Shown one piece after another: positions 7,221 to 59,899 of a DNA stretch of 64,000 nucleotides (position 1 is the stretch's first letter; every line of letters begins with the position of its first letter). A program made the translations under genes and the position numbers. The DNA comes from Patescibacteria group bacterium (GTDB taxonomy: Bacteria > Patescibacteriota > Patescibacteriia > Buchananbacterales > UBA6539): contig JBAZSB010000001.1 of the NCBI GenBank assembly GCA_041662625.1, forward strand, positions 791,710-855,709. Direction: 5' to 3'. A model generated the notes under the pieces. The model saw nothing but the letters and a program-made list of their open reading frames with translations, made no database searches and was not told the DNA's origin.

Positions 7221-7557
7221 CCGTCTTGAGTGAAAACAAGAGATATCATCTTTTATCATGGCTAATTTTGGCCTAATTGTCAACGATGCCTTTTGTCGGG
7301 GGCATATTTTTTTACACTTGACAAAGATTTTTCACTATGATAATTTGAAAATGAGCTTTAGGCTCAACATAGCGCGAAAAGCCCGGATTTTTCCGGGTTT
7401 TCGTTTGTCTAATTTTTAGTATCAATCATTAATTTAAAATCAAAAAGGTAATCAATATGGCGCAAACCAATTTTGGTTGTGCGCTTTTATTATTAAAATT
7501 TTGAATTTTTAAATTCGAATTTTGACTCAATATTATAATATCTTAATTTATAAATGT

Positions 7558-7917
7558 ATGACCAAAACTAATAATAAATTTGACTTGGAGGAAAGAACGG
7601 CAAAATTCGGAGGAGACATTATTGAATTTTGTAAATTACTAACGGAAAACACTATTACTAGACCTCTTATAAGCCAGGTTGTCCGTTCCGGTACTAGTAT
7701 CGGTGCAAATTATATGGAAGCAAACGGTGGTAGTTCAAAAAAAGACTTCAAAAACAAAATTTTCTACTGTAAAAAAGAATGCCAAGAGACAAAACACTGG
7801 TTAAGAATGATAGCTAAGGCTTGTCCAAATAATTTAAAAGATTGCCAAAAACTTTGGCAAGAAGCTCAAGAATTAACTTTAATTTTTGGCAAAATAATTT
7901 CAACTTTAAAATATTAA
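7558..7917 (+). CDS. four-helix-bundle protein (23S rRNA intervening-sequence protein family)
   Basis: 'LEERTAKFGGDIIEFCKLL...SQVVRSGTSIGANYMEANGGSSKKDFKNKIFYCKKECQETKHWL' matches the family signature; ATG at 7558 preferred over TTG at 7522; gene flanked by AT-rich inverted repeats. Confidence 0.85.
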   Translation: MTKTNNKFDLEERTAKFGGDIIEFCKLLTENTITRPLISQVVRSGTSIGANYMEANGGSSKKDFKNKIFYCKKECQETKHWLRMIAKACPNNLKDCQKLWQEAQELTLIFGKIISTLKY

Positions 7918-7970
7918 ATTATTCGAAATTGAATCAAAATTCAAAATTCGAAATTAAAAATTATAAATCT

Positions 7971-9854: not shown

Positions 9855-10412
9855 ATGACGGCTAAATCTAAATTAAAACAACCTAAAACGGCCTCTCTAA
9901 TTCCGGCCGAGACAATTACCCAATCAATTTTGTTTATCCGCGGCCAAAAAGTAATGTTTGATGAAACTTTGGCTCAACTTTACGGCGTTAAAACAAAGGT
10001 TCTAAATCAGGCAGTAAAAAGAAATCGTAGTCGGTTTCCTAAAGATTTTATGTTTCAACTAACAAATGAGGAATTAGAAAATTGGAGGTCACAATTTGTG
10101 ACCTCCAATCCGTCAGCAAAAATGGGGCTGAGACGCAAACCTTATGCCTTTACCGAACAAGGTATTGCTATGCTTTCAAGTGTCTTAAATAGTAAACGTG
10201 CTGTTCAAGTTAACATTGAAATTATGAGAACCTTTGTTCGCCTCCGCCAAATGCTGGCTTCGCACCAACAGCTTGGCCGAAAAATGGAAGCTTTGGAAAA
10301 AAGGTATGATCGGCGGTTCAAAATTATCTTTGATGTCCTTCGCCAGCTAATGAAGCCACCGGAACCAAAACCTAAGCCGATTGGCTTTGAAGATCGCCAA
10401 AAAAGAAAGTAA
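9855..10412 (+). CDS. ORF6N-domain protein (KilA-N-like DNA-binding, phage-associated family)
   Basis: 'IRGQKVMFDETLAQLYGVKTKVLNQAVKRNRSRFPKDFMFQLTNEE' is the ORF6N signature. Confidence 0.8.
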   Translation: MTAKSKLKQPKTASLIPAETITQSILFIRGQKVMFDETLAQLYGVKTKVLNQAVKRNRSRFPKDFMFQLTNEELENWRSQFVTSNPSAKMGLRRKPYAFTEQGIAMLSSVLNSKRAVQVNIEIMRTFVRLRQMLASHQQLGRKMEALEKRYDRRFKIIFDVLRQLMKPPEPKPKPIGFEDRQKRK

Positions 10413-10468
10413 CTTAAAACTATTAACAATAAATAATAGAAAAATGAAAAAACGAATCTAACTAATGA

Positions 10469-10497
10469 TTTGACAAATTATTTGAATAAGGGTAAAT
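10469..10497 (+). promoter_or_regulatory. sigma70-like promoter (TTGACA-17-TAAATA) for GC-rich small ORF
   Basis: Read directly; followed by RBS AAAGGAGA and ATG 10552. Confidence 0.4.
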
Positions 10498-10551
10498 AAA
10501 AAAGGGGGCTTACCAAAACCGCACTTAAAAGTAGCGGGGAAAGGAGACGGT

Positions 10552-10788
10552 ATGACTGAAGACAGGCAACTGCCCAAAGACTTGAGACCGGGCGATATCC
10601 TGGTCTTCGATAGCAACACAGAAACACCGGTTCAGGCGGTGGTTGATCGTGGAGGGCCAGACGTCCAGATAATACTGGCCAGCGGGCCACCAGACCGAAG
10701 GAACAATTCCCTCTTTCCTATCACCATTAGCAAAAATGGGAATGGCGGCTTGCGCTATCCCGCCAACATCACCACGGTGAAGCGGTAA
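10552..10788 (+). CDS. small GC-rich hypothetical protein (78 aa)
   Basis: ORF with GGAGA RBS, GC-rich codons, followed by hairpin terminator at 10811-10845. Confidence 0.35.
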   Translation: MTEDRQLPKDLRPGDILVFDSNTETPVQAVVDRGGPDVQIILASGPPDRRNNSLFPITISKNGNGGLRYPANITTVKR

Positions 10789-10869
10789 TTGTTTGCGGAC
10801 TTATCTTATTGTGGCTCAGCCTCGCCTGAGCCCTTTCTTTTTTAAGACTTACTGATATAATAAATATAT

Positions 10870-11043
10870 ATGCTTTTGCTCAACACAAGCGCCAAAACCG
10901 GCTGGTTTCAGCTGGGAATAATAGTGGTAATGACAATTATTAGCTTTTATTTTATCAAAGAAGCTTTTGCCAAAACCCTGATTGAATGGCAAAATGTAAA
11001 TGAACTCCAGCAGACCGAAATCCAAGGAATGTTAGACCAATAG
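10870..11043 (+). CDS. small hydrophobic peptide (57 aa), hypothetical
   Basis: ORF MLLLNTSAKTGWFQLGIIVVMTIISFYFIKEAF... followed immediately by a strong terminator. Confidence 0.25.
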   Translation: MLLLNTSAKTGWFQLGIIVVMTIISFYFIKEAFAKTLIEWQNVNELQQTEIQGMLDQ

Positions 11044-11046
11044 ATT

Positions 11047-11102
11047 AAAAAATCACCCGGCCAAAATATTGTAGAACCATTTTTTGGCCGGGTGATTTTT
11101 TG
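11047..11102 (+). terminator. rho-independent terminator (18-bp stem AAAATCACCCGGCCAAAA/TTTTGGCCGGGTGATTTT + T-run)
   Basis: Perfect inverted repeat read directly; flanked by A-run and T-run (bidirectional). Confidence 0.8.
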
Positions 11103-11214
11103 TTAGAAACAATAGAATTGACAAGGTTAAGAAGAAGGTGTTAATTTAAAATATCCTGACAAAGAGCAGGATGAAGCAGCTAACCATAGGCTCAAACGGA
11201 GGAGGTCAAGACAT

Positions 11215-12264
11215 ATGGATACATCGGTTTACGCCGCCTTTGCAGACGGCACAAGAGTTGAAGAAAAGGTCCTCAGAGTACTAAAGAGGTTCGCGCCCGA
11301 CGGGCACCTCGACGTCCTGGCCTGCGACCAGGACAACTCGTTCCGCTCGATGTTGAAGAAGTTCCACACCAACTGCCGGGCCGCGGGCGGCAGAACCGAG
11401 GATTATCCGGAAGTTCCGGAGGATTTGCATGTAACCATTCTCAGCCGGCTGCTGGCGAGGACATTGGGCCGCGGCCATCACGCCGCCTTGTTCAACCAGC
11501 TTGGCTTCAAGAAAGGCGGGTTCCGCGAGGACCTGGGCGAGGAAACAATGTTGCTCGGCCGTCTCGAGAACACCAAGTTCGCCGATGGACCGGACGGCGG
11601 GCAAGTTGCCCAACTGGCCATCGAGCCTGAAGAAGCCGACCCGTACGTCGACGGTTTCAAGACGCTGGTCAAGGTCGATCCGGCCAAGCCGGCGAGTTGG
11701 GAGGCCAATCTTGCGTGGCTGCGCGACGTTGACGCGCGGTGCAAGGCACTCGGCAAACCGCTATTTAACGAGACCTTGTACACGCCGCCGGCCGATGTCT
11801 CCAAACTCGTGATGGCCCAGAACTTACCCGGCGCCCTGCTGAAAATCGCCCTCGCCTTCGGTCCCTTTGGCACCTTTTACAAAACCCAGGTGCCACTGGC
11901 ATGGGTCGAAGGCGTCGCGGTCGGCCATTCCGGCGGTATCAGAACCAACATCGGCTTCATGGCTGAGCTCATCAAACGCCCGCTGTTGATCCTATCGGCA
12001 GCAGTCGACTTCGACCAGTACGCGCTGCAATTCGCGTCGATTGCCGATTTGGCCGTCGGGCCGATGTGCGGACGGGCCTATTTCAAAGACCCGTTCAGCG
12101 ACCCGGCCGTGAGCAACTGGGAACTGCTCGAGCACGCCATCGCCGAAATCGCCCTGCCGCGCATGAAACTGATCCGCGGCATGATGCAAAATGTCGGCCG
12201 ACCCTGGTGGGCGGACTTCAAGGAAGTATCGCCGGCGGCGAAAACGCTGCTCGGCCTCAGCTAG
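11215..12264 (+). CDS. class I aldolase of the LacD/DUF2090 family (tagatose-1,6-bisphosphate-aldolase-like), GC-rich
   Basis: 'VLACDQDNSFRSML' resembles LacD 'ALAFDQRGALKRMM'; C-terminal 'GPMCGRAYF' resembles LacD 'GVLCGRATW'; strong RBS GGAGGAGG; high GC3. Confidence 0.5.
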   Translation: MDTSVYAAFADGTRVEEKVLRVLKRFAPDGHLDVLACDQDNSFRSMLKKFHTNCRAAGGRTEDYPEVPEDLHVTILSRLLARTLGRGHHAALFNQLGFKKGGFREDLGEETMLLGRLENTKFADGPDGGQVAQLAIEPEEADPYVDGFKTLVKVDPAKPASWEANLAWLRDVDARCKALGKPLFNETLYTPPADVSKLVMAQNLPGALLKIALAFGPFGTFYKTQVPLAWVEGVAVGHSGGIRTNIGFMAELIKRPLLILSAAVDFDQYALQFASIADLAVGPMCGRAYFKDPFSDPAVSNWELLEHAIAEIALPRMKLIRGMMQNVGRPWWADFKEVSPAAKTLLGLS

Positions 12265-12300
12265 GCCCCAAATCCGAGGAGGGCAGAACAATTACAACAA

Positions 12301-12336
12301 CGCCGCGTCGGCTTTCCGATGCGGCGAATTTTTTTA
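12301..12336 (+). terminator. rho-independent terminator after aldolase-like gene
   Basis: CGCCGCGTCGGCTTTCCGATGCGGCG hairpin + AATTTTTTT. Confidence 0.7.
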
Positions 12337-12378
12337 CTTAACTTATTAACTTGCCAACTTACAAACTTAGCAGCTGAT

Positions 12379-14181
12379 CTATTCCCACTCAATCGTGGCG
12401 GGCGGTTTATTGGTTACATCATATAAAACTAAATCAATGCCGGGAATTTGTAAAATCTTTTTCGCTATTTTATCCAAAACTTTTTTGTTCATTTGGTAAA
12501 AATTAACGGTCATGGCTTCCTGTGATTCCACTGGCCGCAAAATTATAGTTTGACCACCTTTTAAACCAAGCGGCGCTAAAACTACCGGGAACTGCCAGAT
12601 GTCATTATAAATTTTTGCTTTTTTAATTTCCTCATTGACCAAAGCATCAACTCGGCGAAGTAAGTCCAACCGGTCTTTAGTCAAATAAGCTTTTTTTACT
12701 TTTAAATTGCTTAACTTAACTTTGGCCGGCGCCACTAAATAAACCACCCGGTTAATCTCATGGACTTCGTTAGTAATTCTGATTGAAAAATCATGAAGTT
12801 TATTCCAATCAAGCGACCCACTGAGTAAAACCGGCTGCCGGTAAGTCCGATTATCGCCCTGCACCCCGACACTTTTGAGCGGTAAAATTATTGATTTCAA
12901 TTTCTGACCAACAATTCTTTGCAGATTGATTTTTTGATTTTTTGATTTTTTGATTTCTTGACCGCTACTGCAAAGCACCCTGATAAACAACCCCGGCCCG
13001 GGAAATGGATGGCGATTAATTAAACTTGCAGGCAAACCCAGTTTTTTGGCTACTTGCCGGACCTCATCTTTGTATAATTCTGACAGCGGCTCAACTAAAG
13101 CACCCAGCCGCATCAGCTTTAAAATTTCTTTGACGCGATTATGATGGGTTTTGATTTTATCCGCATGCTTGGTGCCGCCGGTTTCAATGGTATCGGGATA
13201 AATTGTGCCTTGGCCCAAAACCCAATCTTTGGGCTTAAGGCCATTTTTTTTCATTACTTCATCTTTTATCTGCAAAAACGTCCGGCCGATGATCTCCCGT
13301 TTTTTTTCCGGGTCAACTACGCCTTTCAAAGCTGCCAAAAACTTGGCTGAAGCATCATATACGTGCAAATTACCAAACCCGGCTTGGGCTAAAGCCGTTT
13401 TAACCTGGGCTGACTCATTCAAACGCATGGAACCAGAATCGATATGTAGGCCAAAAACCCGGTTTTTGCCTAAAATTTTCTCCAGCAAGGCAAAACAAAC
13501 TGTCGAATCAACTCCGCCGGAAACCAATAAAAATACGTTACGTTTGCCAACGACAGCTTTAACTTTTTTTACCATCTGACTAAAATATTTTTCCAGCGAC
13601 CAGTCTTTTTGACAGTGGCAAATCTTAAAAACAAAATTACTTAAGACCAACTGACCGGCTTTGGTATGAGCCACTTCGGGATGAAATTGCAGGCCATAAA
13701 TATTTTTACTGGCGCAAGCCATAGCCGCCACATTACAGTCACTAGTCTTAGCGCAATTGATAAAGCCCGGCGGCAACTGCACAACGCTATCACCATGACT
13801 CATCCAAATCCGGCTTTGCTTGGGCACACCGGCTAAAATTCTGCCATCAACAATTTTTTCCAAATTGGCAAAACCATATTCTTTAACTCTGCCTTTCTGG
13901 ACTTTGCCACCCAAATGCTGGGCAACTAATTGATGACCATAGCATAGACCTAAAATCGGCACCTCTAATTTAAATAGTTGTGGATTATATCTTACCGCGG
14001 TTTGGTCATAAACACTATTTGGCCCCCCAGATAAAATTATTCCCCTTACTCCTTTTAATTCTTGAGTAGAAACTAGCGGCGGAAAAATCTTAGCTAAAAC
14101 GCCCAGCTGTCTGATCCGCCGGGTAATTAAATGAGTGTATTGCGAGCCAAAGTCGATAATGGCGATTTGTGATGGCTTCAT
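12379..14181 (-). CDS. guaA: GMP synthase (glutamine-hydrolysing)
   Basis: N-terminal class-I GATase (LGLCYGHQL, HPEV), PP-loop 'LVSGGVDSTV', conserved GMP-synthase C-terminal dimerisation domain; contains Lys-rich insert encoded by (TTTTTTGAT)n tandem repeat at 12925-12960. Confidence 0.9.
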   Translation of the reverse strand: MKPSQIAIIDFGSQYTHLITRRIRQLGVLAKIFPPLVSTQELKGVRGIILSGGPNSVYDQTAVRYNPQLFKLEVPILGLCYGHQLVAQHLGGKVQKGRVKEYGFANLEKIVDGRILAGVPKQSRIWMSHGDSVVQLPPGFINCAKTSDCNVAAMACASKNIYGLQFHPEVAHTKAGQLVLSNFVFKICHCQKDWSLEKYFSQMVKKVKAVVGKRNVFLLVSGGVDSTVCFALLEKILGKNRVFGLHIDSGSMRLNESAQVKTALAQAGFGNLHVYDASAKFLAALKGVVDPEKKREIIGRTFLQIKDEVMKKNGLKPKDWVLGQGTIYPDTIETGGTKHADKIKTHHNRVKEILKLMRLGALVEPLSELYKDEVRQVAKKLGLPASLINRHPFPGPGLFIRVLCSSGQEIKKSKNQKINLQRIVGQKLKSIILPLKSVGVQGDNRTYRQPVLLSGSLDWNKLHDFSIRITNEVHEINRVVYLVAPAKVKLSNLKVKKAYLTKDRLDLLRRVDALVNEEIKKAKIYNDIWQFPVVLAPLGLKGGQTIILRPVESQEAMTVNFYQMNKKVLDKIAKKILQIPGIDLVLYDVTNKPPATIEWE

Positions 14182-14328
14182 ATTATGAATTGATTATATC
14201 GCAGTTTTAGGTTATTATAAAGTAAATTAGAAGGTAGATTGGTAGAACGGTAGGGCTGTAGAGCCTAATTAGTCAGCTACTTACCTACTGATCTACCAAT
14301 CTACTAACCTACTTACCTAAACTATACT

Positions 14329-15408
14329 ATGCGCGAAGCCCTAACTTTTGACGACGTCTTGCTCGTCCCCCAAAAATCCAATGTTTCACCAGGTAAAGTC
14401 TCAACCCAGACTTTTTTAACTAAAAGAATTAAGTTAGATATTCCAATTTTATCTGCCGCCATGGATACGGTGACCGAAAGCCCAATGGCCATTGCTTTAG
14501 CTAAGGCCGGGGGTTTAGGTATTATTCATAAAAACATGACGGCTCAACAGCAGGCCAGTGAAGTTAAAAAAGTTAAAGCCAAAAAACTGCTGTGCGGCGC
14601 TTCAGTTTCAGTTGGTGACGAAGCAATTGCCCGAGCAAAACTTTTAGCCGCCGCAGGAGTTGACGCCATTGTTATTGATGTGGCTCACGGCCATTACTAT
14701 AAAGTAGCGGAAACTATCAAAGCTTTGAAAAAACTGATTGGCAAAAAAGTTGTCATTATCGGCGGCAATGTTGCCACTGGCCAAGCCACCTCTGACTTAA
14801 TCAAAGCCGGAGTTGATGTGGTTAAAGTCGGCGTCGGTCCAGGTTCAATTTGCACCACCCGAATCATTGCCGGCATTGGCGTGCCCCAGCTGACCGCGGT
14901 CATGGATGCGGTGGCGGCCGCCAGAAAAACCAAAACTCCGATTATTGCTGATGGCGGCATTAAATTCTCTGGTGACCTAGTTAAAGCTTTGGCCGCCGGA
15001 GCCAGTGCGGTGATGCTTGGCGGACTTTTGGCCGGAACTGACGAAGCACCCGGTAAACTGTTAACTGTTAACGGTCAACGGGTAAAAACTTACCGCGGCA
15101 TGGGCTCAATTGATGCCATGCAAAAAGGCAGCAAAGACCGCTATTTGCAAGGCGACAAAAGCGGCAAAGAACTGATTGCCGAAGGCGTGGTCGGCCACGT
15201 GCCTTATAAAGGTTCAGTTGATAACGTGATTAGCCAATTGATCGGCGGGCTGCGGCAGGGCTTAGGCTACTGCGGTTCTAAAGATATTACCGAACTTTGG
15301 AAGAAAGCTGAATTTGTCAAAATTTCACCAGCTGGTCTGAAAGAAAGCCATCCGCACAGTCTGCAGCAAATCAAAGAAGCACCAAATTATAGAAGCGAAT
15401 TTATATAA
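14329..15408 (+). CDS. guaB: IMP dehydrogenase-like enzyme lacking the CBS subdomain
   Basis: Catalytic loop '[14 protein letters not shown]', flap 'GSKDRYLQ...[10 protein letters not shown]' typical of IMPDH and not GMP reductase; no CBS pair; divergent from guaA. Confidence 0.8.
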
Positions 15409-15430
15409 AATTAAAATTGCCTTTAAATAA

Positions 15431-15481
15431 AAGAAACAGTCTGTCCTTACTGCCTCCTTGCTTTCAGACAGACTGTTTTTC
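15431..15481. terminator. bidirectional rho-independent terminator between guaB and the pilin gene
   Basis: 12-bp stem AAACAGTCTGTC/GACAGACTGTTT with U-runs on both strands. Confidence 0.8.
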
Positions 15482-15525
15482 AAATTGTGCCTTGGGAAGG
15501 GTCTGGCGCACGACGCTACTCGGCG

Positions 15526-15951
15526 CTACTCTTTGGCGGGTTCGCTGTCGGCCTTGGCTGGATTGTGCATATTCTGCCGAACGGTACCGGATTGGTCGAC
15601 ATAGAAGAAGCGATTGCCCGTCTCGCTATCAGCTACGGGTTCGGCCGTGGCAGCAAAGTTGTCGCCGCTACCCGTCAGATCGAACTTGTAGCCCCTCTTT
15701 TGTGCTACCTGATTCCCATCGAGGAACGGCGGCGTAGCCGCAGTTAGCTCTTCGAGAGTGCTGGCGTACTTGCCGTTGGTGGACTTGAAAGCCTGTTGGG
15801 CCCCAACGACGGCACGCAGACTGCCGATCGCAGCGGCTTCATTCGATTGCATCCGCGACCGGAGCAGGTTGGGGATCGCGATCGCCGCGATGATCGCAAT
15901 AATCGCAACAACAATCATCAACTCAATCAGTGTGAACCCGTTCTTTCTCAT
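15526..15951 (-). CDS. type IV pilin / pseudopilin (prepilin-type N-terminal cleavage-methylation domain), GC-rich
   Basis: 'MRKNGFTLIELMIVVAIIAIIAAIAIP' class-III signal peptide; RBS GGAGGA; high GC3. Confidence 0.8.
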   Translation of the reverse strand: MRKNGFTLIELMIVVAIIAIIAAIAIPNLLRSRMQSNEAAAIGSLRAVVGAQQAFKSTNGKYASTLEELTAATPPFLDGNQVAQKRGYKFDLTGSGDNFAATAEPVADSETGNRFFYVDQSGTVRQNMHNPAKADSEPAKE

Positions 15952-16159
15952 GTAGTGTCCTCCATTCTATTCGAGGCGCTATGGCCTCACCCAATTGCTG
16001 GCGTGATTCGCCGGATTGGCAAATCAAACTCGCCAAGCTTCTAAAGACATTAGCAAAAGTCCACTATCTTGTCAAAGGTCTTTTGGCGTATTCATCAAAT
16101 ATAAAAGAAGGTAACCTTGGTTAAGCTACCTTCTCTATTATTTTATTACCTATTTAAAT

Positions 16160-16672
16160 TTATTCGCCCAAAATCAAAGTCTGAATGATACTGAAACCAG
16201 TTTTATCTTCTGGGATGCTGGTACCGACTGTTGCTGACCACTTGTCTTTTTTAAACACTAAAACCGTATTGCCATTAACAGTTGAATCCATTTGTTTTTC
16301 CCAGCCAGCCGCAGCAAAAGCCTCCTTATAGTAATTTATGATTTCTTCTTGACTGTTATTAGTATTGATGGCCATGGTAAAACTTCTGCCACCGGGTAAA
16401 TCCAAAACTGAAGAATTTTCAATTGTGCCATTTTGATAATAAGGCACTTCGCTCGGCCAGCCCTCCGGTAAAGTATTATTGCTTTTGACCGAAATAATAT
16501 TACCATCCTTATCCTTAATAGTTGTTTCTTCATCATTGATATTAATGTTCGCACCAGTTTTGGTCTCAACATACTTCTCAGCAGCTTTTTGGCCTAAACT
16601 TTTACCACAACCAAAAAGCACAAGCGTCAAAACCACTATAATCCCCAAAAATAATGTTTTTTTACTAAGCAT
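16160..16672 (-). CDS. putative lipoprotein, function unknown
   Basis: Signal peptide with lipobox 'LVLFGCG'. Confidence 0.5.
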   Translation of the reverse strand: MLSKKTLFLGIIVVLTLVLFGCGKSLGQKAAEKYVETKTGANININDEETTIKDKDGNIISVKSNNTLPEGWPSEVPYYQNGTIENSSVLDLPGGRSFTMAINTNNSQEEIINYYKEAFAAAGWEKQMDSTVNGNTVLVFKKDKWSATVGTSIPEDKTGFSIIQTLILGE

Positions 16673-16705
16673 AGATTTTTATCTTAATTTTAAAATTCAC
16701 TAATT

Positions 16706-18145
16706 TTATTTCAGCCGCTTTCTTAAAGCCATGTGGGCAGTTTGTAACTCCAAAATCAATTGGCTTTCATCAATTAAATTATGAATCCGATTGGAAATTA
16801 TAAATTCGCCGTTAATCATCAAATCGCGGACGTTGCGGCCGCCATGGGTAATCATATTACCGATTAAACTGACTGGTTTATGTTCGTTATAAGGCATAAA
16901 ACCCCGGTCGCGCAGTTTCCAAAAAGCCAAATCTGCCCGAAAGCCCGGCAAAATCCGGCCAACCGATCCGAGCTTAAGAATTTCTGCGGCCTGCGAAGTC
17001 ATCATCTTAAATAAATCTTCGTATAGCACCCGATGTTTGTCTTGATGCATAATCCGCATTTGTAAAGATTCCGAAAGTAAATCCAAACTGTTTTTAGAAA
17101 CCACACTATCGGTACCTAAACAAATCTGTTTATCAGCTTTAAATTTAACAAATGAGGGATATTTAAATTCACCGCTTTTGTGCAGTTTGTTGGAAGTCGG
17201 CAAATGAACAATGCCGATTTTATATTTTTTAACCAATTTAATTTCTTCATCATTCAAATGAACCGCGTGCGACAAAATCGTGTTTGAATTGGCCAAACCC
17301 AGCTTCACTAAAGCCTTGATGGTTGGCTGACCAAGTTTTTCAATACATTCTTGAACCCACTCTTCAGTTTCCGCGGCATGCATCGTCAACAAAACCTTGT
17401 ACTTTCTAATTAGTTCTTTAATTTTCTTCAGTTGCGCCGGAGTTGGCTTATGGAGATAATGAATGGCAATCGCTGGTTGGGAAAAATAATTTTTTTTCTT
17501 TTTTAAAATTTGTTCCACCAAGGCCGGAGAATTCTGGGGATGGGAATTCGAAACCGCCGAAATGGCGTTAATCACTCTTTGTTTAGTAATGAAAGCTGCC
17601 TGCTCAATCGGTTCAAATACTCCATAATGGCTGAAAGTGGTAGTAATACCGTTCTTCTGCTCCTCGGTAAAATCACCAACTGCTCCCAAAAAGAAGTCTT
17701 GGTTTTGCATTCTCGCTTCCAGTTCACCCATCCTCTGAACCTGATCAACAATATTGCCTTTGTCTAAGGTCATTGATGAGCGCAAAAGATACATCGGCGG
17801 ATGAGCATGGGCATTAATAAAACCCGGCGTCACTACAATGCCGCTGCGTTTACCAGCATCATAAATTAAATCAACTTTGCTGGCCAAGTTTTTGCTTTTT
17901 TTGGCCACAAAGACATCCTTAATAATGCCATCAACAATATAGATTGAACGGTTGGGCCAAACCTGAAGCTTATTGCGCTGGTCAGTCGTAATCACAAAAG
18001 CTGCATTATTAATCAGCACCCGCCGGATCTTTTTAGGGCTACCCATTAAAATATAACGGCTGTGTTTCTGCCGTTCTAAAAGGTAAGTCGGTTCAGCATT
18101 AATGGCATCAAAAACTGTATTATTTTTTTTAATGATTTCCTGCAT
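16706..18145 (-). CDS. amidohydrolase-family metal-dependent deaminase/hydrolase (MtaD/SsnA/cytosine-deaminase-like)
   Basis: 'GFINAHAHPPMYLLRS' HxH metal-binding motif, 'VHLPTSNKL', 'GTDS' typical of amidohydrolase_1. Confidence 0.75.
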   Translation of the reverse strand: MQEIIKKNNTVFDAINAEPTYLLERQKHSRYILMGSPKKIRRVLINNAAFVITTDQRNKLQVWPNRSIYIVDGIIKDVFVAKKSKNLASKVDLIYDAGKRSGIVVTPGFINAHAHPPMYLLRSSMTLDKGNIVDQVQRMGELEARMQNQDFFLGAVGDFTEEQKNGITTTFSHYGVFEPIEQAAFITKQRVINAISAVSNSHPQNSPALVEQILKKKKNYFSQPAIAIHYLHKPTPAQLKKIKELIRKYKVLLTMHAAETEEWVQECIEKLGQPTIKALVKLGLANSNTILSHAVHLNDEEIKLVKKYKIGIVHLPTSNKLHKSGEFKYPSFVKFKADKQICLGTDSVVSKNSLDLLSESLQMRIMHQDKHRVLYEDLFKMMTSQAAEILKLGSVGRILPGFRADLAFWKLRDRGFMPYNEHKPVSLIGNMITHGGRNVRDLMINGEFIISNRIHNLIDESQLILELQTAHMALRKRLK

Positions 18146-18220
18146 AATTTAGAGCTAGAAGTTGATTTAATTTTATGATAGCCTAGATTTATGATATAAT
18201 CAATCTACCATCTATATACT

Positions 18221-18391
18221 ATGAGCATAAGATTCAATGAAATTATCACCAAAGCCGATTGGGCAAAAATCATTATCTTAGTAGTAATTTCAACGATTTG
18301 CTGGATTTGGGTCTGGCGCGAATATCAAAAACCAGTCATCCCGCCGGAGTGGGATCAGGAATGGAGCCAAACAGTAGATATTCAAGATTAA
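18221..18391 (+). CDS. small membrane peptide (56 aa), hypothetical
   Basis: ORF MSIRFNEIITKADWAKIIILVVISTICWIWVW... not in supplied track (<60 aa); one TM helix. Confidence 0.3.
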   Translation: MSIRFNEIITKADWAKIIILVVISTICWIWVWREYQKPVIPPEWDQEWSQTVDIQD

Positions 18392-18541
18392 TTTAGACTG
18401 GCCGGAATTGACAAAATCGGCTAATTAAACTTAAGATATAAGCACGTGGAAGGAGGCACAGGGCCTCTTTTTTCGCACCTTTGACAACAGGATAAGGCAC
18501 GCTGAGCGTGTAGCTACATAACTAGACGGAGGATAACTGCT

Positions 18542-19831
18542 ATGCCAATGAACCAAGGCTTCACCCAAGAGTTGTTTCCAATTCTGGACCAACTGCTGGC
18601 TGCTTTTCCCGCACCGTTCCATATCATGCATGAACGAGGGATAATCGATACAGCTCAGCAACTTCACCGCGTACTGCGCCAAGCGTGCCCGCAGTTCCGC
18701 AACTTCTTTGCCGTCAAGGCCAATTCCAACCCGGAAGTTCTCCGACTGCTCTACGAGCAAGGTATGGGGTTTGACTGCAGCTCAATCGTCGAACTTCGGC
18801 TGGCGCGAGCAACAGGTGCTAAACCGGAAGACATCTTCTTCACTTCGAATGACACTTCGCAGGAAGAGTTTGAAGAAGCAATGTCGGCCGGTGGCTGCAT
18901 TCTCAACCTCGATGACAAGGGATTGATTCCGAAAGTACCAGAGCCATTCCCGAAGTCGATCTGTTTCCGCTGGAACGCAGGCAAACTGCGCGTCTTGGAC
19001 AGCGTCATCGGCAACCCAGAAACCTGCAAGTACGGAGTACCGCACGAACAGATTGTTGATGCCTATCGGCTTGCCCAAGAACGTGGCGCCGAGCGCTTCG
19101 GCCTGCATGCGATGCTTGTTTCAAATGAACGAAACTGGGAATGTCATGCCCAGACCGTCGGCATGCTACTGGAAACCGCCGCGCTACTGGAAACCGAACT
19201 CGGCATCCGCGTTGAGTTCATTAATATGGGCGGCGGGCTTGGTATTCCCTACCGTCCTGAAGATGAACCGGTAGCGCTCGAACAACTGGCCGAAGCGATT
19301 AGCAAAGCTATGGCAGCTTTCGAGGCAGAACACAAATGGCGGCCGCTGCTGCGTTCGGAAAACGGCCGCTACGTTACCGGTCCACACGGTGTCTTCATTG
19401 CCCGATGCATCAATGAAAAGCACGGCTACCGCGAATTCCGAGGCGTTAATGTCTCAGCAATGGCTGCCGTGATGCGTCCGACAATGTATCACCCCAAAGG
19501 TGGCTATCACCACATTACCGTTTTTGAACCCCCTTTGGATGAACCGGTCATATGTAGTGTAGTCGGTCCGGCCTGCGAAGATAGCGATCGCTTTGGCTGG
19601 GATCGGCTACTCTCACTTCACGAAGGTCAGCACGTTTTTGTCCATGACATCGGCGCCCACGCTACGGAAATGGGAAGTAACTACAATAACCGCCCCAAGC
19701 CGCCGATGCTGATGTTGCGCCAAAACGGCCAAATTGATCTGATTGAGCCGGGCCAGACCGTCGAAGAATTGGTGGCGAAACGCTTTCGCTACCTCGAGCA
19801 GCCATGGTCATTTAAGCCTGCTGGGCAATGA
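18542..19831 (+). CDS. PLP-dependent decarboxylase, Orn/DAP/Arg decarboxylase family 2 (diaminopimelate-decarboxylase-like), GC-rich
   Basis: 'FFAVKANSNPEVL' PLP-lysine motif, 'GGGLGIPY', 'CEDSDRF' ; RBS GGAGGA. Confidence 0.8.
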   Translation: MPMNQGFTQELFPILDQLLAAFPAPFHIMHERGIIDTAQQLHRVLRQACPQFRNFFAVKANSNPEVLRLLYEQGMGFDCSSIVELRLARATGAKPEDIFFTSNDTSQEEFEEAMSAGGCILNLDDKGLIPKVPEPFPKSICFRWNAGKLRVLDSVIGNPETCKYGVPHEQIVDAYRLAQERGAERFGLHAMLVSNERNWECHAQTVGMLLETAALLETELGIRVEFINMGGGLGIPYRPEDEPVALEQLAEAISKAMAAFEAEHKWRPLLRSENGRYVTGPHGVFIARCINEKHGYREFRGVNVSAMAAVMRPTMYHPKGGYHHITVFEPPLDEPVICSVVGPACEDSDRFGWDRLLSLHEGQHVFVHDIGAHATEMGSNYNNRPKPPMLMLRQNGQIDLIEPGQTVEELVAKRFRYLEQPWSFKPAGQ

Positions 19832-19870
19832 CCACCACCCAAACTTCACAACACAGAGAAGGGAGAATTG

Positions 19871-21148
19871 ATGATGACACAAAGCCCCATAGACATCCGC
19901 CGCTCTTTCGGAGCGGGAATCGGTGGCGCCACCTTTGGTGACGATACCGCCGAGTATCTGTTCGGCCGAATCAAACGGCTCCGCCTGAAGTTTCAAATCG
20001 AACATCCGGACATCACAGTGCTAAACTTCGGCATTGGCGAACCGTATAACGGTCCGGATCATATCGTGCGGGAAGCGGCTGTAACGGCTATCCGCGATTC
20101 CCGGTTTGACGGGTACCCGGACCTTGGTTTGGCTAAACTAAGAGAAGCAGCGGCTTCTCATTTCCAAACCGTCTTCGGACTAAGCTACCAGCTCGACCCG
20201 GAAACCCATGTCCAGGACTGTTGGGGAATCAAGCCTAGCCTTGACGCCTTAACCAAGGTGTTCTGCTCTCCCGGCAATCAGGAGTGGCCGGTTGCGCGAA
20301 TCCAGGTCGCGGTGACTACACCAGGCTACCCGGTTTTTGGCACCCAGGCCGCCAAACTCGGCGCCCAAGTTATCACCATGCCAGTGACCAGAGAAAACGG
20401 TTACCTACCGGACATCTCGGTTCTGGAGAAAGCCGCGCACCTTCACGCCATCTACCTGATTAGTCCGCACAATCCGACTGGCCGAGCCTACGATACCGAG
20501 GCTGGCTGGTGGCAGAAAGTCGTGGACTTCTGCCGCGAGAGAAGTGTCGCGTTGATCGTCGATGAAGCCTACTGCCATCTGCGCTGGGCGCCGGGCAAGC
20601 CGTTCACCGCTCTGTCTATTCCGGGTTTCATGGATGTCGGCGTTGTTTTGCACTCCGTCTCCAAAACCTTGGACTGGACCAGCGGCCGCATCGGCTGGGT
20701 GGTCGGCAATCCGATGATTATCCGGGCATACCGGAAAGAGTACGAAGACTCTTCTTCTGGCCAAACCCTGGCTCTGCAATGGGCCGCGGCAGAAGCGCTG
20801 AACAACTTCGGCTTGATCGTACCTAAAATCCAAGCCGACTATCGGCGGCGGCTGGAGGGACTGATCAAGATACTCCAAAGCCGGGGCTTCCCCGTTCAAA
20901 TGCCCGACGGCGGGTTCTTCATCTTCAGTCCGGCGCCGACGTATTGCGGCGGTCAGACTATTGCCGATGCCGAGGAGTTCATGCAGTACCTACTGAATGA
21001 GCACGGCATCGTCAGCGTTCCTTTCGGCGACCATATCCGGTTCGCCAGCACAGTCAAAGTCGGCGGTCCAGGCCAGCCGGCAACATACGAACGGGCACTA
21101 GAAATGCTCAACGAACGCCTGCCTGAAGTGTTCCAATTCAAATCGTAA
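19871..21148 (+). CDS. class I/II aminotransferase (LL-diaminopimelate-aminotransferase-like), GC-rich
   Basis: 'LNFGIGEPY', PLP lysine region 'HSVSKTLDWTSGRIGWVVGN'; RBS AAGGGAG; 36 nt downstream of the decarboxylase (operon). Confidence 0.8.
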   Translation: MMTQSPIDIRRSFGAGIGGATFGDDTAEYLFGRIKRLRLKFQIEHPDITVLNFGIGEPYNGPDHIVREAAVTAIRDSRFDGYPDLGLAKLREAAASHFQTVFGLSYQLDPETHVQDCWGIKPSLDALTKVFCSPGNQEWPVARIQVAVTTPGYPVFGTQAAKLGAQVITMPVTRENGYLPDISVLEKAAHLHAIYLISPHNPTGRAYDTEAGWWQKVVDFCRERSVALIVDEAYCHLRWAPGKPFTALSIPGFMDVGVVLHSVSKTLDWTSGRIGWVVGNPMIIRAYRKEYEDSSSGQTLALQWAAAEALNNFGLIVPKIQADYRRRLEGLIKILQSRGFPVQMPDGGFFIFSPAPTYCGGQTIADAEEFMQYLLNEHGIVSVPFGDHIRFASTVKVGGPGQPATYERALEMLNERLPEVFQFKS

Positions 21149-21167
21149 CGGAGGGAAGAATACAATT

Positions 21168-21221
21168 CCTGCACTAACTTGCGTCGAAACAAGACGTCGG
21201 GTTGGTGCAGGTTCTTTTTTT
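21168..21221 (+). terminator. rho-independent terminator after aminotransferase (overlaps stop of transposase gene on opposite strand)
   Basis: CCTGCACTAAC...GTTGGTGCAGG stem + TTCTTTTTTT. Confidence 0.7.
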
Positions 21222-21870
21222 ACATATTTAACCCCTCCGGATTATTTCTGTCTCGCCACCATTTTTTAGGATTTTCAATAATATATTGCCGGATATTATT
21301 TAATGATTCTTCGTTACGAATAATATGATCATAAAAACGTGATTGCCAGCCAAATTCAATATTGTTACTATTGCCATATTTTTTAACGCTTGATTTAAAT
21401 GCCCGAACCGCAGCAGAAATATTTTTGGATTGCGGGCCAAATTTATTTTCGTATTGTACCGCCGGGCAATTGCGCATTTGAATATTTTGACAACAATTAT
21501 TATCACGTTGTAGAGACGCACAATTGTGCGTCTCTACCCGATTATTAATGTCGTCCAAAAAACCATCAGCGCAATTGCCCGGTACCTGTTTTTTAATTTT
21601 CAATATGGCGTGAATATGATTGGGCATTACAATAAATGAATCTATTTTTATATGTTTGTAATATTTTGGTATTACCTTAAAAAATCTTTTGGCAACATAA
21701 CCAATCCTGTTTAGATGCGCCTTGCAATTAATGACGTCTCCAAAATAACAAATTCTGTCTTTAGCACAAATAGTAATAAAATAATAGCCCGGCCAGGAAT
21801 AATCCCAACCCTTCAATCGGACGGAATCAATTCGATATTTATTTTTAAATAATTCATTATTTTGATACAT
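21220..21870 (-). CDS. HUH Y1 transposase of the IS200/REP-associated (RAYT-like) family, with internal palindromic element
   Basis: 'FIVMPNHIHAIL' HUH motif, C-terminal 'GWQSRFYDHIIRNE' catalytic Tyr region; 216 aa with an insert containing the family-B palindrome. Confidence 0.7.
   Translation of the reverse strand: MYQNNELFKNKYRIDSVRLKGWDYSWPGYYFITICAKDRICYFGDVINCKAHLNRIGYVAKRFFKVIPKYYKHIKIDSFIVMPNHIHAILKIKKQVPGNCADGFLDDINNRVETHNCASLQRDNNCCQNIQMRNCPAVQYENKFGPQSKNISAAVRAFKSSVKKYGNSNNIEFGWQSRFYDHIIRNEESLNNIRQYIIENPKKWWRDRNNPEGLNM
21510..21537. repeat. palindromic element family B, copy 2 (28-nt perfect palindrome GTAGAGACGCACAA|TTGTGCGTCTCTAC) inside transposase CDS
   Basis: Read directly; encodes RVETHNCASLQ in frame, the same peptide (VETHNxASL) as copy 1 in an unrelated gene. 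Confidence 0.9.
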
Positions 21871-21931
21871 AAAAACGCATCTTATGATGCGCTACGTTGA
21901 TTATTAAATTATGTTAATTTTTAATATTTTC

Positions 21932-22006
21932 TGGAGCGGGTGAGCGGAGTTGAACCGCCGTCTCAACCTTGGCAAGGTTGCATAATAGCCGTTATACGAC
22001 ACCCGC
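21932..22006 (-). tRNA. tRNA-Gly (anticodon GCC), CCA encoded
   Basis: Reverse complement: acceptor GCGGGTG/CACCCGC, anticodon stem CAACC/GGTTG loop TTGCCAA, T-arm GGCGG-TTCAACT-CCGCT, 3' TCCA; D-arm pairing irregular. Confidence 0.75.
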
Positions 22007-22054
22007 AAAAGTTACAGAAAGAATTATAACAGAAAGAGAAAAAAATACAAGCCC

Positions 22055-22516
22055 TTAATTCCTTAACCGATATAAAGCCACCGCTGAGGCTACCGCCACA
22101 TTCAACGACTCCTTCTTCCCCAACATCGGAATCTTAACTATATCATCAGCTAAAGCTAAAATCTTTTTACTCACTCCTTTGGTTTCACTGCCGACCACCA
22201 AAGCCAAAGGAAATTTTGGTTTGAAACTAGGCAGAGACTGACTTTTTTTGCCCGTTTCTAAAACCACAATCTTAATCCCCTGTTTTTTTAATTTCTTTAT
22301 CAATAAATGTGTTTGCCAATGTCTTTCCCAAACGATCCACTCATCTGCCCCTAAAGCGGTCTTGGAAATTTCTTTCCGCACTGGAAAACCGGTGTAGCCA
22401 CATAAATAAATCTTTTTAACGCCAAAAACATCGGCACAGCGGAAAAGCGCACCAACGTTATATAGACTGCGGATATTTTGAGCAATTAGATATACTTCTT
22501 TATTTTTTATTGACAT
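22055..22516 (-). CDS. SpoU/TrmH-family RNA 2'-O-methyltransferase (TrmL-like)
   Basis: 153 aa; 'LYNVGALFRCADVFG', 'LVVGSETKGVS...SLNVAVASAVALYRL' SPOUT motifs. Confidence 0.75.
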   Translation of the reverse strand: MSIKNKEVYLIAQNIRSLYNVGALFRCADVFGVKKIYLCGYTGFPVRKEISKTALGADEWIVWERHWQTHLLIKKLKKQGIKIVVLETGKKSQSLPSFKPKFPLALVVGSETKGVSKKILALADDIVKIPMLGKKESLNVAVASAVALYRLRN

Positions 22517-22564
22517 ATCGACATTTTTATCTTAATATAGTTAAAGTTTATAAGCAATAATTTT

Positions 22565-22648
22565 GCCCAGGTGGTGGAACTGGTATACACGCAGGACTTA
22601 AAATCCTGTGGCTGCAAAGCCATGCGGGTTCGATTCCCGCCCTGGGCA
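22565..22648 (+). tRNA. tRNA-Leu (anticodon UAA), CCA not encoded
   Basis: Acceptor GCCCAGG/CCTGGGC, anticodon stem CAGGA/TCCTG loop CTTAAAA, long variable arm, T-arm GCGGG-TTCGATT-CCCGC. Confidence 0.85.
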
Positions 22649-22722
22649 TATAAATCGAAAATGAGTTCGCCTGCCCCACCCGTTATAACAACGTAACAAT
22701 TTATTCACCCAACTTAACTACT

Positions 22723-22746
22723 ACAACCATAATGGTTGTTTTTTGT
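22723..22746 (+). terminator. rho-independent terminator after tRNA-Leu
   Basis: ACAACC-ATAA-GGTTGT + TTTTTTG. Confidence 0.6.
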
Positions 22747-22864
22747 TTGAGATAAATTGACATATCAAAAAAAATCTGTTAAGGTTTTGGAAACTACAGT
22801 GGAAGGAGTAGAAGTTTAACCCAAGGGAAGTACTCTACAATTGAATCGGAAGGAGAAACAACTG

Positions 22865-24586
22865 ATGGAATATGCGCAAGGAGTAACCGACCTAAGCCGA
22901 GACCAACTGCGGATCCTCCTTGAAATCGCGGGGATGATCAACACCACCGGCGATCTGAAAGGTCCCCTCTCCCAAGCACTGAGGATGGCCATTGAGGCTA
23001 TCGGCGGCGAGGAAGGCTCCATCTTGATGCTGAATCACGATGGGCTCCTAAGGATCTATGCAGCGTTAGGCATTCCCGAAGAGACTATTCGAACTGTCAA
23101 TGCGAAGGGGATCCAGCTAGGTGAAGGCTTCGCTGGCTGCGTCGCCCAGACGAATAAGCCACTGCTCTTGAATAAAGGCAATGGCCATAGCGTTCGAATC
23201 CAGTCCGCCATCTCTGTCCCGCTATCAGTAGACCATAGGGTAATCGGGGTCCTGAATGTCAGCCGAATCAAATCGGATTTACCCTTCAACGAGCTAGACT
23301 TGGCCATGCTTGTCCATGTGGCAAGGGAACTCTATCCGGTTATCGGCAAACGACGGAACCTCGAAGCCATCTACGAAGCAGCAGTCGCTTTAGCCGCCGC
23401 TACCAGTCTGCCAGAAACTATCTTCGCCATGATGGTGATGAAACAGGCTTTGCTCGTCAACGAGCTTGCTCTGTTCATAGTCGCTGGAGAATATCTGGAA
23501 GAAGTAACCAGCACGACCACTGGCCCTTCGCAGGTCAAGATTCCGCTGGCTGGAGAACCGGCAACTGACGACACGACAACGGCTGCAGTCATAATCCAAT
23601 CCCTCCGTGGGAAAAAGATGATTGTCTGCAACGAAGTGACGCCTGGAGCTAGTGACCAACGCCCATTTGCCGTTATTCCCTTCTTCGATCCGCGGCAAAA
23701 GCCAGAAGGGGCAATAGTCATCTACGGCGAAGTCGGCTGCGCGGTCACCCAGGAGGAAACCACGGTCATCCAAACCTTTGCCCGCATTGTTGCCCTGCAA
23801 ATCTCCCACCTCCAAGATATAGCGGACAAAAAACAAGGTCAGCAACGGATGGTCTTTATCCTCGCCGCCGCCTTGGAATTCCGCAGCCACTACACCGCCG
23901 GGCACTCCAACCGCGTCAGCACCTATGCCGTCGCCGTAGGGAAAAAACTCGGCCTCCGTCCCGAGGAACTCCTGCTTTTGGAGCACGGCGGGCTAATCCA
24001 CGATATCGGCAAAATCGGAATTCGCGACGAGGTCTTGGAAAAACCTGGCCAGCTCACTGTGGAAGAATGGGCCGAGATGAAACAACATCCCGATCGTGGC
24101 GTGGCGATGATTAAGGATGGCGGCGCTTTCAGTGAAGGTGTCGCGCGGTTCATCCTAAGACACCACGAACGTCCGGATGGTAAAGGTTATCCCAATGGGA
24201 TTGGTGAAGATCAGCTCACGACCGCCGAGCTCATCCTTGGGGCAGTGGACTGTTTTGATGCCATGACCTCCCGCCGTAACTACCGGCAGGAACATAAAGA
24301 CGGGATGCCGATCGAAGCCGCCATCCTGGAAATGATCCGGTGCAGCGGCACGCAGTTCAACACCCAGGTGGTCCAAGCGCTGATTAGCGCCTTGAAAGAT
24401 GGGATCCAGATCGACGAAGATGGTGGTAGCCGAACAATGCTACTTGGGCCAACCGAGTGTCAAGCCATCGCGACCGCCCTCCTTCACCGGTCAACGCCGG
24501 ATCCCAACCCAGCCGACAGGCAACAGATCAGTAGCCAAATCGCTACCCAGTTCGCGACCCTGTTTCCGTTGACAACTGCGGGCTGA
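22865..24586 (+). CDS. GAF-domain / HD-GYP-domain protein (putative c-di-GMP phosphodiesterase), GC-rich
   Basis: HD-GYP signature 'HDIGKIGIRDEVL...HHERPDGKGYPNGIGEDQ'; N-terminal GAF-like region; ATG 22865 with RBS GGAAGGAG preferred over TTG 22841. Confidence 0.8.
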   Translation: MEYAQGVTDLSRDQLRILLEIAGMINTTGDLKGPLSQALRMAIEAIGGEEGSILMLNHDGLLRIYAALGIPEETIRTVNAKGIQLGEGFAGCVAQTNKPLLLNKGNGHSVRIQSAISVPLSVDHRVIGVLNVSRIKSDLPFNELDLAMLVHVARELYPVIGKRRNLEAIYEAAVALAAATSLPETIFAMMVMKQALLVNELALFIVAGEYLEEVTSTTTGPSQVKIPLAGEPATDDTTTAAVIIQSLRGKKMIVCNEVTPGASDQRPFAVIPFFDPRQKPEGAIVIYGEVGCAVTQEETTVIQTFARIVALQISHLQDIADKKQGQQRMVFILAAALEFRSHYTAGHSNRVSTYAVAVGKKLGLRPEELLLLEHGGLIHDIGKIGIRDEVLEKPGQLTVEEWAEMKQHPDRGVAMIKDGGAFSEGVARFILRHHERPDGKGYPNGIGEDQLTTAELILGAVDCFDAMTSRRNYRQEHKDGMPIEAAILEMIRCSGTQFNTQVVQALISALKDGIQIDEDGGSRTMLLGPTECQAIATALLHRSTPDPNPADRQQISSQIATQFATLFPLTTAG

Positions 24587-24634
24587 ACCAAGTCCGCTGA
24601 AGTAATCGGAGGATTGGAGGGAACACTTTGAGAC

Positions 24635-24725
24635 ACTCGCACAGACAAGGAAGGGAATGTGCGAGTCTTTTTTTATGTTCAATTTAGCACCTCGAGTTAA
24701 GTCGAGAGGTGCGAGTCTTTTTTTA
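24635..24725 (+). terminator. tandem rho-independent terminators sharing the 3' half GTGCGAGTCTTTTTTTAT
   Basis: Hairpins ACTCGCACA...TGTGCGAGT + T7 (24635-24675) and GCACCTC...GAGGTGC + T8 (24687-24725). Confidence 0.7.
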
Positions 24726-24764
24726 TTTGTTTTTTTGGCCTAAAAACGGTAAGATACTATTGAT

Positions 24765-59885: not shown

Positions 59886-59899
59886 GTTTTATGCGGGAC

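Follow-up and report, generated by a model that had tools for sequence, protein, structure and literature searches.

Short-period tandem arrays with a G-poor sense strand before start codons in a Candidatus Buchananbacteria genome

Tandem arrays of CCTAC and CCTAA words lie directly before several start codons in a 64,000-nt stretch of DNA, hereafter the window, from a Patescibacteria group bacterium of the Buchananbacterales. With a probability of roughly 55%, we interpret them as one flavour of a genome-wide class of imperfect arrays of 7-9-nt units, which resemble the short tandemly repeated repetitive sequences (STRRs) of cyanobacteria and would be born by slippage and filtered by selection. 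Their description as a mimic of the anti-Shine-Dalgarno (anti-SD) sequence, as a sign of an altered 16S tail or as a discrete mobile element is not supported. We did not find arrays of this type described for Patescibacteria in the literature, of which our coverage was incomplete.

In the window, a CCTAC context is found with the genes of a GMP synthase, an IMP dehydrogenase without CBS domains, the F1Fo ATPase operon and a Pro_CA_2 protein, and further with those of an HD protein, a Wzy_C protein, a solute-binding protein and a protein resembling the pilins of type IV secretion systems (T4SS). The remaining genes are typical of the candidate phyla radiation (CPR). The closest relatives of its GuaB and AtpG carry the names Candidatus Buchananbacteria or Patescibacteria.

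The window was compared with the syntenic loci of seven other Buchananbacteria; individual loci are designated by L numbers. We listed the 60 nt before each of its long open reading frames and scanned its proteins against Pfam, which revealed no transposase, Rho protein or Nop-domain protein among them. Rfam, at gathering score, recognised only four tRNAs in the window and nothing in four related loci. The fetched loci contained no rRNA. Statistics on starts come from a pooled set of 206 start codons (window, L083-L090 and L211-L213); in the array-leader test, arrays were scored in the last 45 nt before the 155 starts whose spacer measures 32 nt or more.

Arrays of 7-9-nt units in intergenic spacers

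A cluster scan of both strands for CTA[C/A] words at most 12 nt apart returned eight arrays in the window, in which the words are almost always spaced by 7 or 8 nt. On the forward strand the clusters occupy positions 14265-14320, 34190-34221, 37038-37080, 41535-41580, 41846-41877 and 62469-62500; on the reverse strand, 14227-14272 and 62420-62444. The lengths of the CCTAC-type arrays range from 30 to 56 nt. A three-unit pattern of period 8, CTACNNNNCTACNNNNCTAC, has 5 matches in the window against 0.00 expected, and the corresponding pattern of period 7, CTAMNNNCTAMNNNCTAM, has 14 against 0.03. The original prediction, made on the letters of the window, had placed such words before guaB, atpG, a carbonic anhydrase (CA)-like gene, an O-antigen-ligase-like gene and the gene starting at 62512, with a further copy inside the coding sequence (CDS) of the ligase-like Wzy_C protein; the scan recovers all of them, the last as cluster 41846-41877.

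CCTAC is one of at least eight unit flavours of arrays with periods of 7-9 nt in the window. By autocorrelation against shuffles, with short-period arrays also listed by Tandem Repeats Finder, a significant array is present in 11 of the 41 spacers of at least 36 nt (11 of 35 for spacers of 36-400 nt), compared with 1 of 41 length-matched coding controls. The periods are 7 (6 spacers), 8 (4) and 9 (1). As a control from diverse bacteria we used 49 loci (977 kb), the distant-phyla matches listed in a GuaB protein scan of genome contigs: 12 of their 383 spacers (3%) carry an array, with no preferred period. The window spacers are thus about ten times richer in arrays than those of other bacteria. 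At the other Buchananbacteria loci, the count is 8 of 75 spacers (6/62 in eight loci plus 2/13 in L088).

Orientation of the arrays and exclusion of Shine-Dalgarno motifs

Arrays occupy the last 45 nt before 19 of the 155 tested starts. In 16 of these 19, C exceeds G on the sense strand, compared with a ratio of 45:54 in non-array leaders. A general depletion of G in all leaders is not seen (GC skew of about 0), so that the bias is specific to the arrays. An SD-like motif is found in none of the 19 array leaders and in 28 of the 108 non-array leaders. What stands is a positional and strand preference of G-poor repeats 5' of SD-less starts; a role of CCTAC as a specific motif is not supported.

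The G-free tails before starts are 21-45 nt long, enough in silico to contain the G-poor stretch of at least 16-18 nt that defines ribosome standby sites. The predicted mean unpaired probability between -20 and +6 is 0.70 for G-poor, C-rich leaders and 0.52 for the rest (Mann-Whitney p=0.001). The CCTACnn heptamer array at 34187-34224 (+) fills the whole atpA-atpG spacer, with neither an inverted partner nor an SD; here the predicted unpaired probability over -20 to +6 amounts to 0.87. A G-free array cannot fold on itself, and would leave 20-45 nt open and single-stranded, on which the 30S subunit could land or stand by to bind without an SD. The statistical bias would then reflect selection for the orientation that gives a G-poor, C-rich mRNA without an SD before the start. 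The suggestion of a non-SD initiation or mRNA-stability element fits the strand bias, the exclusion of SDs and the predicted openness, and is plausible though unproven.

Canonical SDs stand before other genes of the pooled set. AGGAG/GGAGG motifs peak at -15 to -11 (14 of 23 AGGAG fall in that bin), and about 18-26% of the genes have an SD-like motif. Judging by the position of this peak, the 16S tail of the host is very probably canonical (CCUCC). CCTCC itself occurs in three of the eight arrays, at variable positions in arrays that span -3 to -45, where an SD would keep a fixed distance of about 5-13 nt from the start. The window as a whole shows no enrichment of CCTCC (29 occurrences on the forward strand, 27 on the reverse), and GGAGG is absent from the arrays. 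Being identical to the anti-SD, CCTCC is unable to pair with it, and its presence inside arrays is incidental. The resemblance to the 16S tail that was first read into the arrays is not supported. The context of the 206 starts (T at -1 in 68%, A in about 50-56% at -3 to -5, G in at most 9% at -1 to -5) is Kozak-like and resembles that of SD-less Bacteroidetes (PMC6847099), which tune initiation via structure and such a context.

A C-rich, unstructured strand would also suit Rho. Sites of Rho utilisation (rut) generally have more C than G, lack structure and contain spaced YC dimers, and the arrays share these traits, with YC dimers every 7-8 nt; as rut-like sites they would load Rho and impose polarity, or the coupling of transcription to translation, where cistrons meet. 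However, their 32-56 nt fall short of the roughly 70-80 nt of a typical rut region, polarity would do harm in the essential operons that contain them (atpA-atpG), and the other flavours are not rich in C. We consider this function very improbable.

The predicted guaB leader hairpin

Sigma-70-like boxes for the divergent guaA and guaB genes form an overlapping promoter-like module at 14186-14225. The predicted guaA promoter reads TTTATA-17-TATAAT, its -10 box ending 11 nt before the ATG; that of guaB reads TTGATT-17-TATTAT and ends at 14218. The promoter-like block, TTGATTATATCG...GTTAnnATAAAG, adjoins guaA over about 45 nt and is kept in L084 and L086, and the sequence downstream of it is not. 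Placed by this predicted block, transcription of guaB would start near 14225, and guaA is likely leaderless on the basis of conservation. Leaderless starts as a general rule were rejected, as the -10 box shows no positional peak relative to the ATG among the pooled starts.

The putative guaB leader contains a G-rich 5' arm at 14233-14261 (+), of GGTAGA type and period 8, and a C-rich 3' arm at 14277-14328 (+), CTACnnnn with the same period. The latter ends in about 24 nt free of G, up to the guaB ATG at 14329. Between the two genes, the perfect 13-bp core noticed earlier (14234-14246/14292-14304) is confirmed. The predicted fold of 14225-14331 has an energy of -37.3 kcal/mol (z -5.6 against shuffles) and leaves the final 26 nt before the AUG unpaired. 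The 5' arm had been taken for a copy of the repeat in the 5' untranslated region of guaA; it is instead the 5' arm of the predicted guaB leader hairpin and lies upstream of the putative guaA -35 box. A copy is thus present upstream of guaA, but not immediately before it: it ends 45 nt from the ATG, with the promoter-like module in between. No terminator-like site was found in 14100-14400.

The guaB leader forms a significant predicted hairpin in four species (z -5.6, -7.4, -5.0 and -5.2), in all of them downstream of the conserved promoter-like block. Its arms nevertheless consist of different units: GGTAGA/TCTACC in the window, TACGAAT/ATTCGTA in L083, TTAGCT/AGCTAA in L084 and GCGAAT/ATTCGC in L086. 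In three further independent assemblies of near-identical strains (L001, L002 and L215), the guaA-guaB spacer is identical and of the same length.

Repeat-armed hairpins and terminators

A second hairpin of this kind precedes the T4SS-pilin-like gene. Its G-rich 5' arm of GTAG heptamers (62414-62445, +) starts 2 nt downstream of the stop codon that ends the solute-binding-protein gene; its C-rich 3' arm of CTACAAC heptamers (62467-62511, +) continues into a G-free tail of about 25 nt, which reaches the ATG at 62512 and has a predicted unpaired probability of 0.98. Within 62420-62486, the perfect 20-bp stem (62420-62439/62467-62486) reported previously is verified, and the predicted fold of 62410-62514 reaches -42.3 kcal/mol (z -7.5 against shuffles). 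Altogether, six spacers of the window have inverted array pairs that would form long imperfect hairpins, with z between -3.4 and -7.5.

The 62414-62499 hairpin is followed by AACCUAAUCCC, with no T run. Because they lack a U tract, the repeat-armed hairpins are not canonical terminators; those of the window, with a GC stem and a T run, are found at 37519-37541 and 38910-38937. Where a G-rich inverted copy lies upstream of a C-rich array, as before guaB and at 62512, it would create a long stem-loop in the leader or intercistronic RNA. Most likely, the stem-loop would act on mRNA stability or processing, or insulate neighbouring cistrons, and the last 20-26 nt before the AUG would remain free below it.

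Beside these, a 26-bp palindrome at 11047-11101 (92% complementary) has a GC core between an A run and a T run. It looks like a bidirectional intrinsic terminator, by which the organism would use canonical terminators alongside the repeat-armed hairpins.

Turnover at orthologous junctions

At the atpA-atpG junction the window has 38 nt of CCTAC. The same place is taken by an AAATCC/GGATTT hairpin of 121 nt in L088, by five copies of CTTATCTCG in L089, by a CTAAT-type hairpin in L213 and by a spacer of just 3-16 nt in L090, L211 and L212. Even L214, whose AtpG is 93% identical, has a wholly different hairpin, ATTGTTCA/TAACAATT, over at least 108 nt before atpG.

Elsewhere, related arrays persist. 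An octamer array, CCTAAATT/CCTAACTT, occupies the whole spacer between atpC and the CA-like gene (37038-37090, +) and overlaps the atpC stop codon; a related CCTAA array stands at the same junction in L090, and a GGAGG-type SD replaces it in L088, L089 and L213. By eye, the two arrays have diverged about as much as the flanking coding DNA, which points to common descent; for the same reason, an additional constraint on the array sequence is not clear. At the junction of the HD-domain and Wzy genes, CCTA-type arrays are present in three species (window, L088 and L089) and start in the upstream stop codon. The one of the window, a CCTAA/CCTACTT array at 41535-41582 (+), covers this stop codon together with the spacer ahead of the Wzy_C (O-antigen-ligase-like) gene. 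ATTCGTAGATTCGGATAAT is found at the atpD-atpC junction of both L090 (12313-12418) and L213 (12492-12577), which are fairly distant relatives, and ATTCGYA-type units recur in the window, L083 and L086. From these sequences, the lineage seems to draw on a common, limited set of flavours.

Such a set, with one flavour at eight sites in 64 kb, invites a reading by sequence-specific recognition: CCUAC and similar words would be bound by an RNA-binding protein or a small RNA, or pair with a G-rich segment of rRNA, and would place atpG, guaB, Wzy and the CA-like and pilin-like genes under joint control by a non-SD initiation code. The mutual exclusion of arrays and SDs, together with the reported lack of CCUCC in some other Parcubacteria (PMC10783764), would suit it. 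Yet orthologous junctions have other flavours or none, the degenerate units differ among themselves in copy number and in period (7 or 8), and canonical SDs are correctly placed before other genes; no candidate binding protein is found among the window proteins. We hold such recognition to be quite unlikely. Slightly less likely still is a lineage-specific post-transcriptional code that would replace the SD for a set of genes in this largely SD-free lineage, in which each flavour (CCUAC, AUUCGYA, AAAUCC and others) would be read by its own factor, small RNA or rRNA segment, and the inverted copies would be antisense switches.

The array inside the Wzy_C coding sequence

The copy inside the Wzy_C CDS is a CCTACnn heptamer array at 41844-41879 (+). 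The encoded stretch, SYHLQPTSYFLK, belongs to a species-variable loop; the array itself has 19 nt in common with the atpG array. Because the loop has the same length in L089, the array is not an insertion. As for a possible second start hidden in the gene, the ATG at 41879 lies in another frame, which ends after 19 codons.

A third mobile palindromic family, as initially proposed, would be of the REP (repetitive extragenic palindrome), MITE (miniature inverted-repeat transposable element) or RPE (Rickettsia palindromic element) type, inserting into intergenic DNA and occasionally into genes. It would explain imperfect palindromes in spacers, the copy in a CDS and the presence or absence of copies between relatives. 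GTAG, the conserved head of E. coli REPs, is shared as well. The arrays further resemble REPs and BIMEs (bacterial interspersed mosaic elements) as intercistronic or 3' imperfect palindromes with a plausible role in mRNA stabilisation; REP stem-loops stabilise upstream mRNA. However, REPs come as many near-identical palindromes of 20-40 nt with a common consensus, and neither such copies nor a consensus over the full length is seen here: the longest strings common to copies are 19-20 nt long and internal to the arrays, the hairpin arms are themselves tandem arrays, and many arrays are unpaired. Membership in REP/BIME was rejected; among the window proteins, Pfam recognised no RAYT (REP-associated tyrosine transposase), Y1 or other transposase. 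MITEs were set aside in the same way: the copies have no common flanks, no defined terminal inverted repeats and no target duplication, three arrays lack an inverted partner, and the CDS copy is no insertion relative to L089. The idea of a mobile family is not supported, and we judge it highly improbable.

Copy-number switching of surface genes (Wzy, pilin) by phase-variable contingency repeats has in its favour that heptamers adjoin or lie in genes for surface structures. Within the Wzy_C CDS, a perfect GCTCGGG array (x4.4, 100% matches) is found at 42763-42793, in a species-variable loop (RSSGLGARGSGL). It is a candidate site of slippage or phase variation, because adding or losing a single unit would shift the frame. 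But the CCTAC units are imperfect, housekeeping atpG and guaB carry arrays too, and L001, L002 and L215 have the same guaA-guaB spacer; as a general explanation, phase variation is scarcely credible.

Proposed slippage and selection, and a possible neutral origin

We propose that slippage on a local seed makes the arrays and drives their turnover, and that template switching, known to create and maintain RNA hairpins (PMC8794818), makes the inverted copies. With these two processes, unit, length and presence should vary between close relatives at one junction, as is the case. Several arrays start within the upstream stop codon. The heptamer arrays in tolerant loops of the Wzy CDS also fit a mutational origin.

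A purely neutral origin is a serious rival to a selection-filtered class, albeit an unlikely one. The arrays would be microsatellite-like junk without function, produced by slippage-prone replication wherever they do no harm and now and then with inverted copies, and their bias would come from mutational asymmetry or from selection against accidental SDs, starts and structure. Presence, length and unit indeed differ between relatives at the same junctions, spacers of 3-16 nt suffice in some of them, and CDS loops and a convergent spacer contain arrays too. Moreover, the CCTACNN heptamer appears generic given the heterogeneity of the contigs that carry it: among the metagenome matches listed, four-copy arrays are widespread in unrelated contigs of GC 0.35-0.71, without an orientation rule, and include telomere-like CCCTACA and high-GC CCTACTG arrays. 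Against neutrality stand the excess of C over G on the sense strand in 16 of 19 arrays, with balanced non-array leaders, the retention of the guaB leader hairpin in four species despite full replacement of its sequence, the persistence of CCTA-type arrays across species at the epsilon-CA and HD-Wzy junctions, and the filling of about 30% of the spacers with arrays in a small, densely packed genome.

Several points weigh against our proposal of slippage filtered by selection. The sample behind the strand bias is small (19 arrays), and all nine cases in the window precede genes on the forward strand, so that a mutational strand asymmetry is possible. The gap in accessibility is not independent evidence, because it largely follows from the depletion of G. 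A G/T-rich hairpin arm adjoins the ATG of atpG in L088 and L213, the array at 2798-2830 is G-rich on the sense strand, and another lies in a convergent (3'-3') spacer (12338-12369). Relatives do with 3-16 nt in the corresponding spacers, which implies that the arrays are dispensable. Flavours that recur between species (ATTCGYA, CCTAA, AAATCC and AACTTA) are not predicted by pure random slippage. Finally, promoters, leaders and functions are all deduced from sequence.

CPR/Patescibacteria genomes are held to be minimal and packed; here, about one third of the window spacers are filled with fast-evolving arrays or hairpins. They may provide a natural system for the de novo origin of SD-independent initiation regions and leader stem-loops: the architecture is kept while the sequence turns over, arrays and SDs exclude each other, the sense strand is poor in G, and relatives have an SD or a minimal spacer instead. 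They would also extend the unexplained STRR phenomenon of cyanobacteria to a second, very distant phylum. In practice, the arrays may mislead motif finders, gene-start callers and readers of ribosome-binding-site motifs in CPR genomes.

Comparison with known repeats

The canonical units STRR1-3 belong to heterocystous cyanobacteria. STRRs have units of 7 bp and fold into hairpins in intergenic positions, hupS-hupL being one example; a part in transcript stability or translational coupling has been proposed for these repeats of unknown function (PMC2670836). Like STRRs, the arrays of the window are imperfect, have units of about 7 bp, are dispersed between genes and can form hairpins there. They differ in their host, a small and streamlined genome of Patescibacteria and not of heterocystous cyanobacteria, in their units, which are distinct and far more varied, with periods of 7, 8 and 9, and in that they often abut the start codon with an excess of C over G on the sense strand. 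With units such as CCTACnn, ATTCGCA and AAATCA, in a Candidatus Buchananbacteria host, they are an analogue of STRRs and not members by sequence.

In E. coli, G-less CA-repeat tails of 16-18 nt serve as ribosome standby sites (PMC5934652). The arrays share with such unstructured enhancers (CA- or AU-repeat tails, S1-dependent) the G-poor and, by prediction, single-stranded repeats of at least 16-18 nt just upstream of the initiation region, and would likewise act without an SD. Those tails were engineered dinucleotide repeats assayed in E. coli, whereas the arrays are natural units of 7-8 nt known from sequence, some of which are sequestered in hairpins.

The repeats of Borgs, archaeal extrachromosomal elements, are perfect, with units of about 18-21 nt in the examples given and genic units divisible by three (PMC9879509). 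They are fast-evolving, of independent origin, both intergenic and genic, biased in composition and often start in gene ends, all of which recalls the present arrays; the latter are imperfect and shorter, with 7-9-nt units. TIGR (tandem interspaced guide RNA) arrays have units of about 36 nt, made of two alternating 8-12-nt repeats and two 9-nt spacers, in 5-15 repeats next to a Tas gene with a Nop domain (PMC12045711). Arrays from CPR with a short period and conserved words among variable bases are a point of likeness (PMC12045711), but with a period of 7-9 nt, a length of 30-56 nt and no Nop domain in the Pfam scans, the arrays of the window are not TIGR arrays.

Other arrays and features of the window

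Further flavours line the ATPase operon. After atpB(a), a repeat-armed hairpin with arms AAATCA.../TTTGGAT... extends over 31171-31294 (+; z -3.4), and an equivalent hairpin is present there in L088, L089 and L090. A ATTCCGCGT array precedes atpF(b) at 31615-31663 (+), and ACGAAT/ATTCGCA arrays precede atpH(delta) at 32191-32274 (+), a junction at which L088, L089 and L090 have a spacer of at most 5 nt or overlapping genes. Before atpC, a CTGAACTCG array of period 9 covers 36555-36597 (+). In L211, a V/A-type ATPase operon (V_ATPase_I, vATP-synt_E, AC39, F and A; 14303-20903) lies directly downstream of the F-type operon.

Two more repeat-armed hairpins are predicted on the forward strand: AAAATAAG/TTAATTTC at 39059-39131 (z -3.9), before a polysaccharide-synthesis gene starting at 39143, and AGAATCA/TTCTTGA at 60939-61035 (z -4.5), in the spacer between an NTP-transferase gene and the solute-binding-protein gene starting at 61036. 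The array of 2.1 units of CTGGCTAACTGGATTTA, listed also as CTGGCTAA, at 60041-60081 (+) stands directly before the ATG at 60082. The array of the convergent spacer at 12338-12369 (+) consists of AACTTAnn octamers, a flavour also seen in L084 and L088, and shows that arrays are not limited to 5' leaders. Heptamer arrays of AATTTTG type (7489-7525) and TCAAAAT type (7932-7968), inverted and about 400 nt apart, flank a small open reading frame (7522-7917) upstream of an LTD/PKD-domain gene.

The region of about 10000-25000 differs from the rest of the window in composition and initiation signals. Its GC content is 0.45-0.50, compared with 0.33-0.42 in most other parts, and it contains most of the strong GGAGG SDs, before the starts 11215, 15951 (reverse strand), 18542 and 19871.

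The gene of tRNA-Ser(CGA), at 59789-59915 on the reverse strand, has a perfectly complementary leader and trailer of 13 nt (tcccgcataaaac/gttttatgcggga), which extend the acceptor stem to 20 bp. Just upstream of it lies a 17-nt copy of its D-arm region (ctgagtggttcaaagcg), which may be a remnant of integration or duplication. Finally, a perfect 40-bp palindrome without spacer (AATTCCGTAGGTGCGATTCG/CGAATCGCACCTACGGAATT) is found at 1132-1171, within the CDS of a PGA_cap-domain protein.

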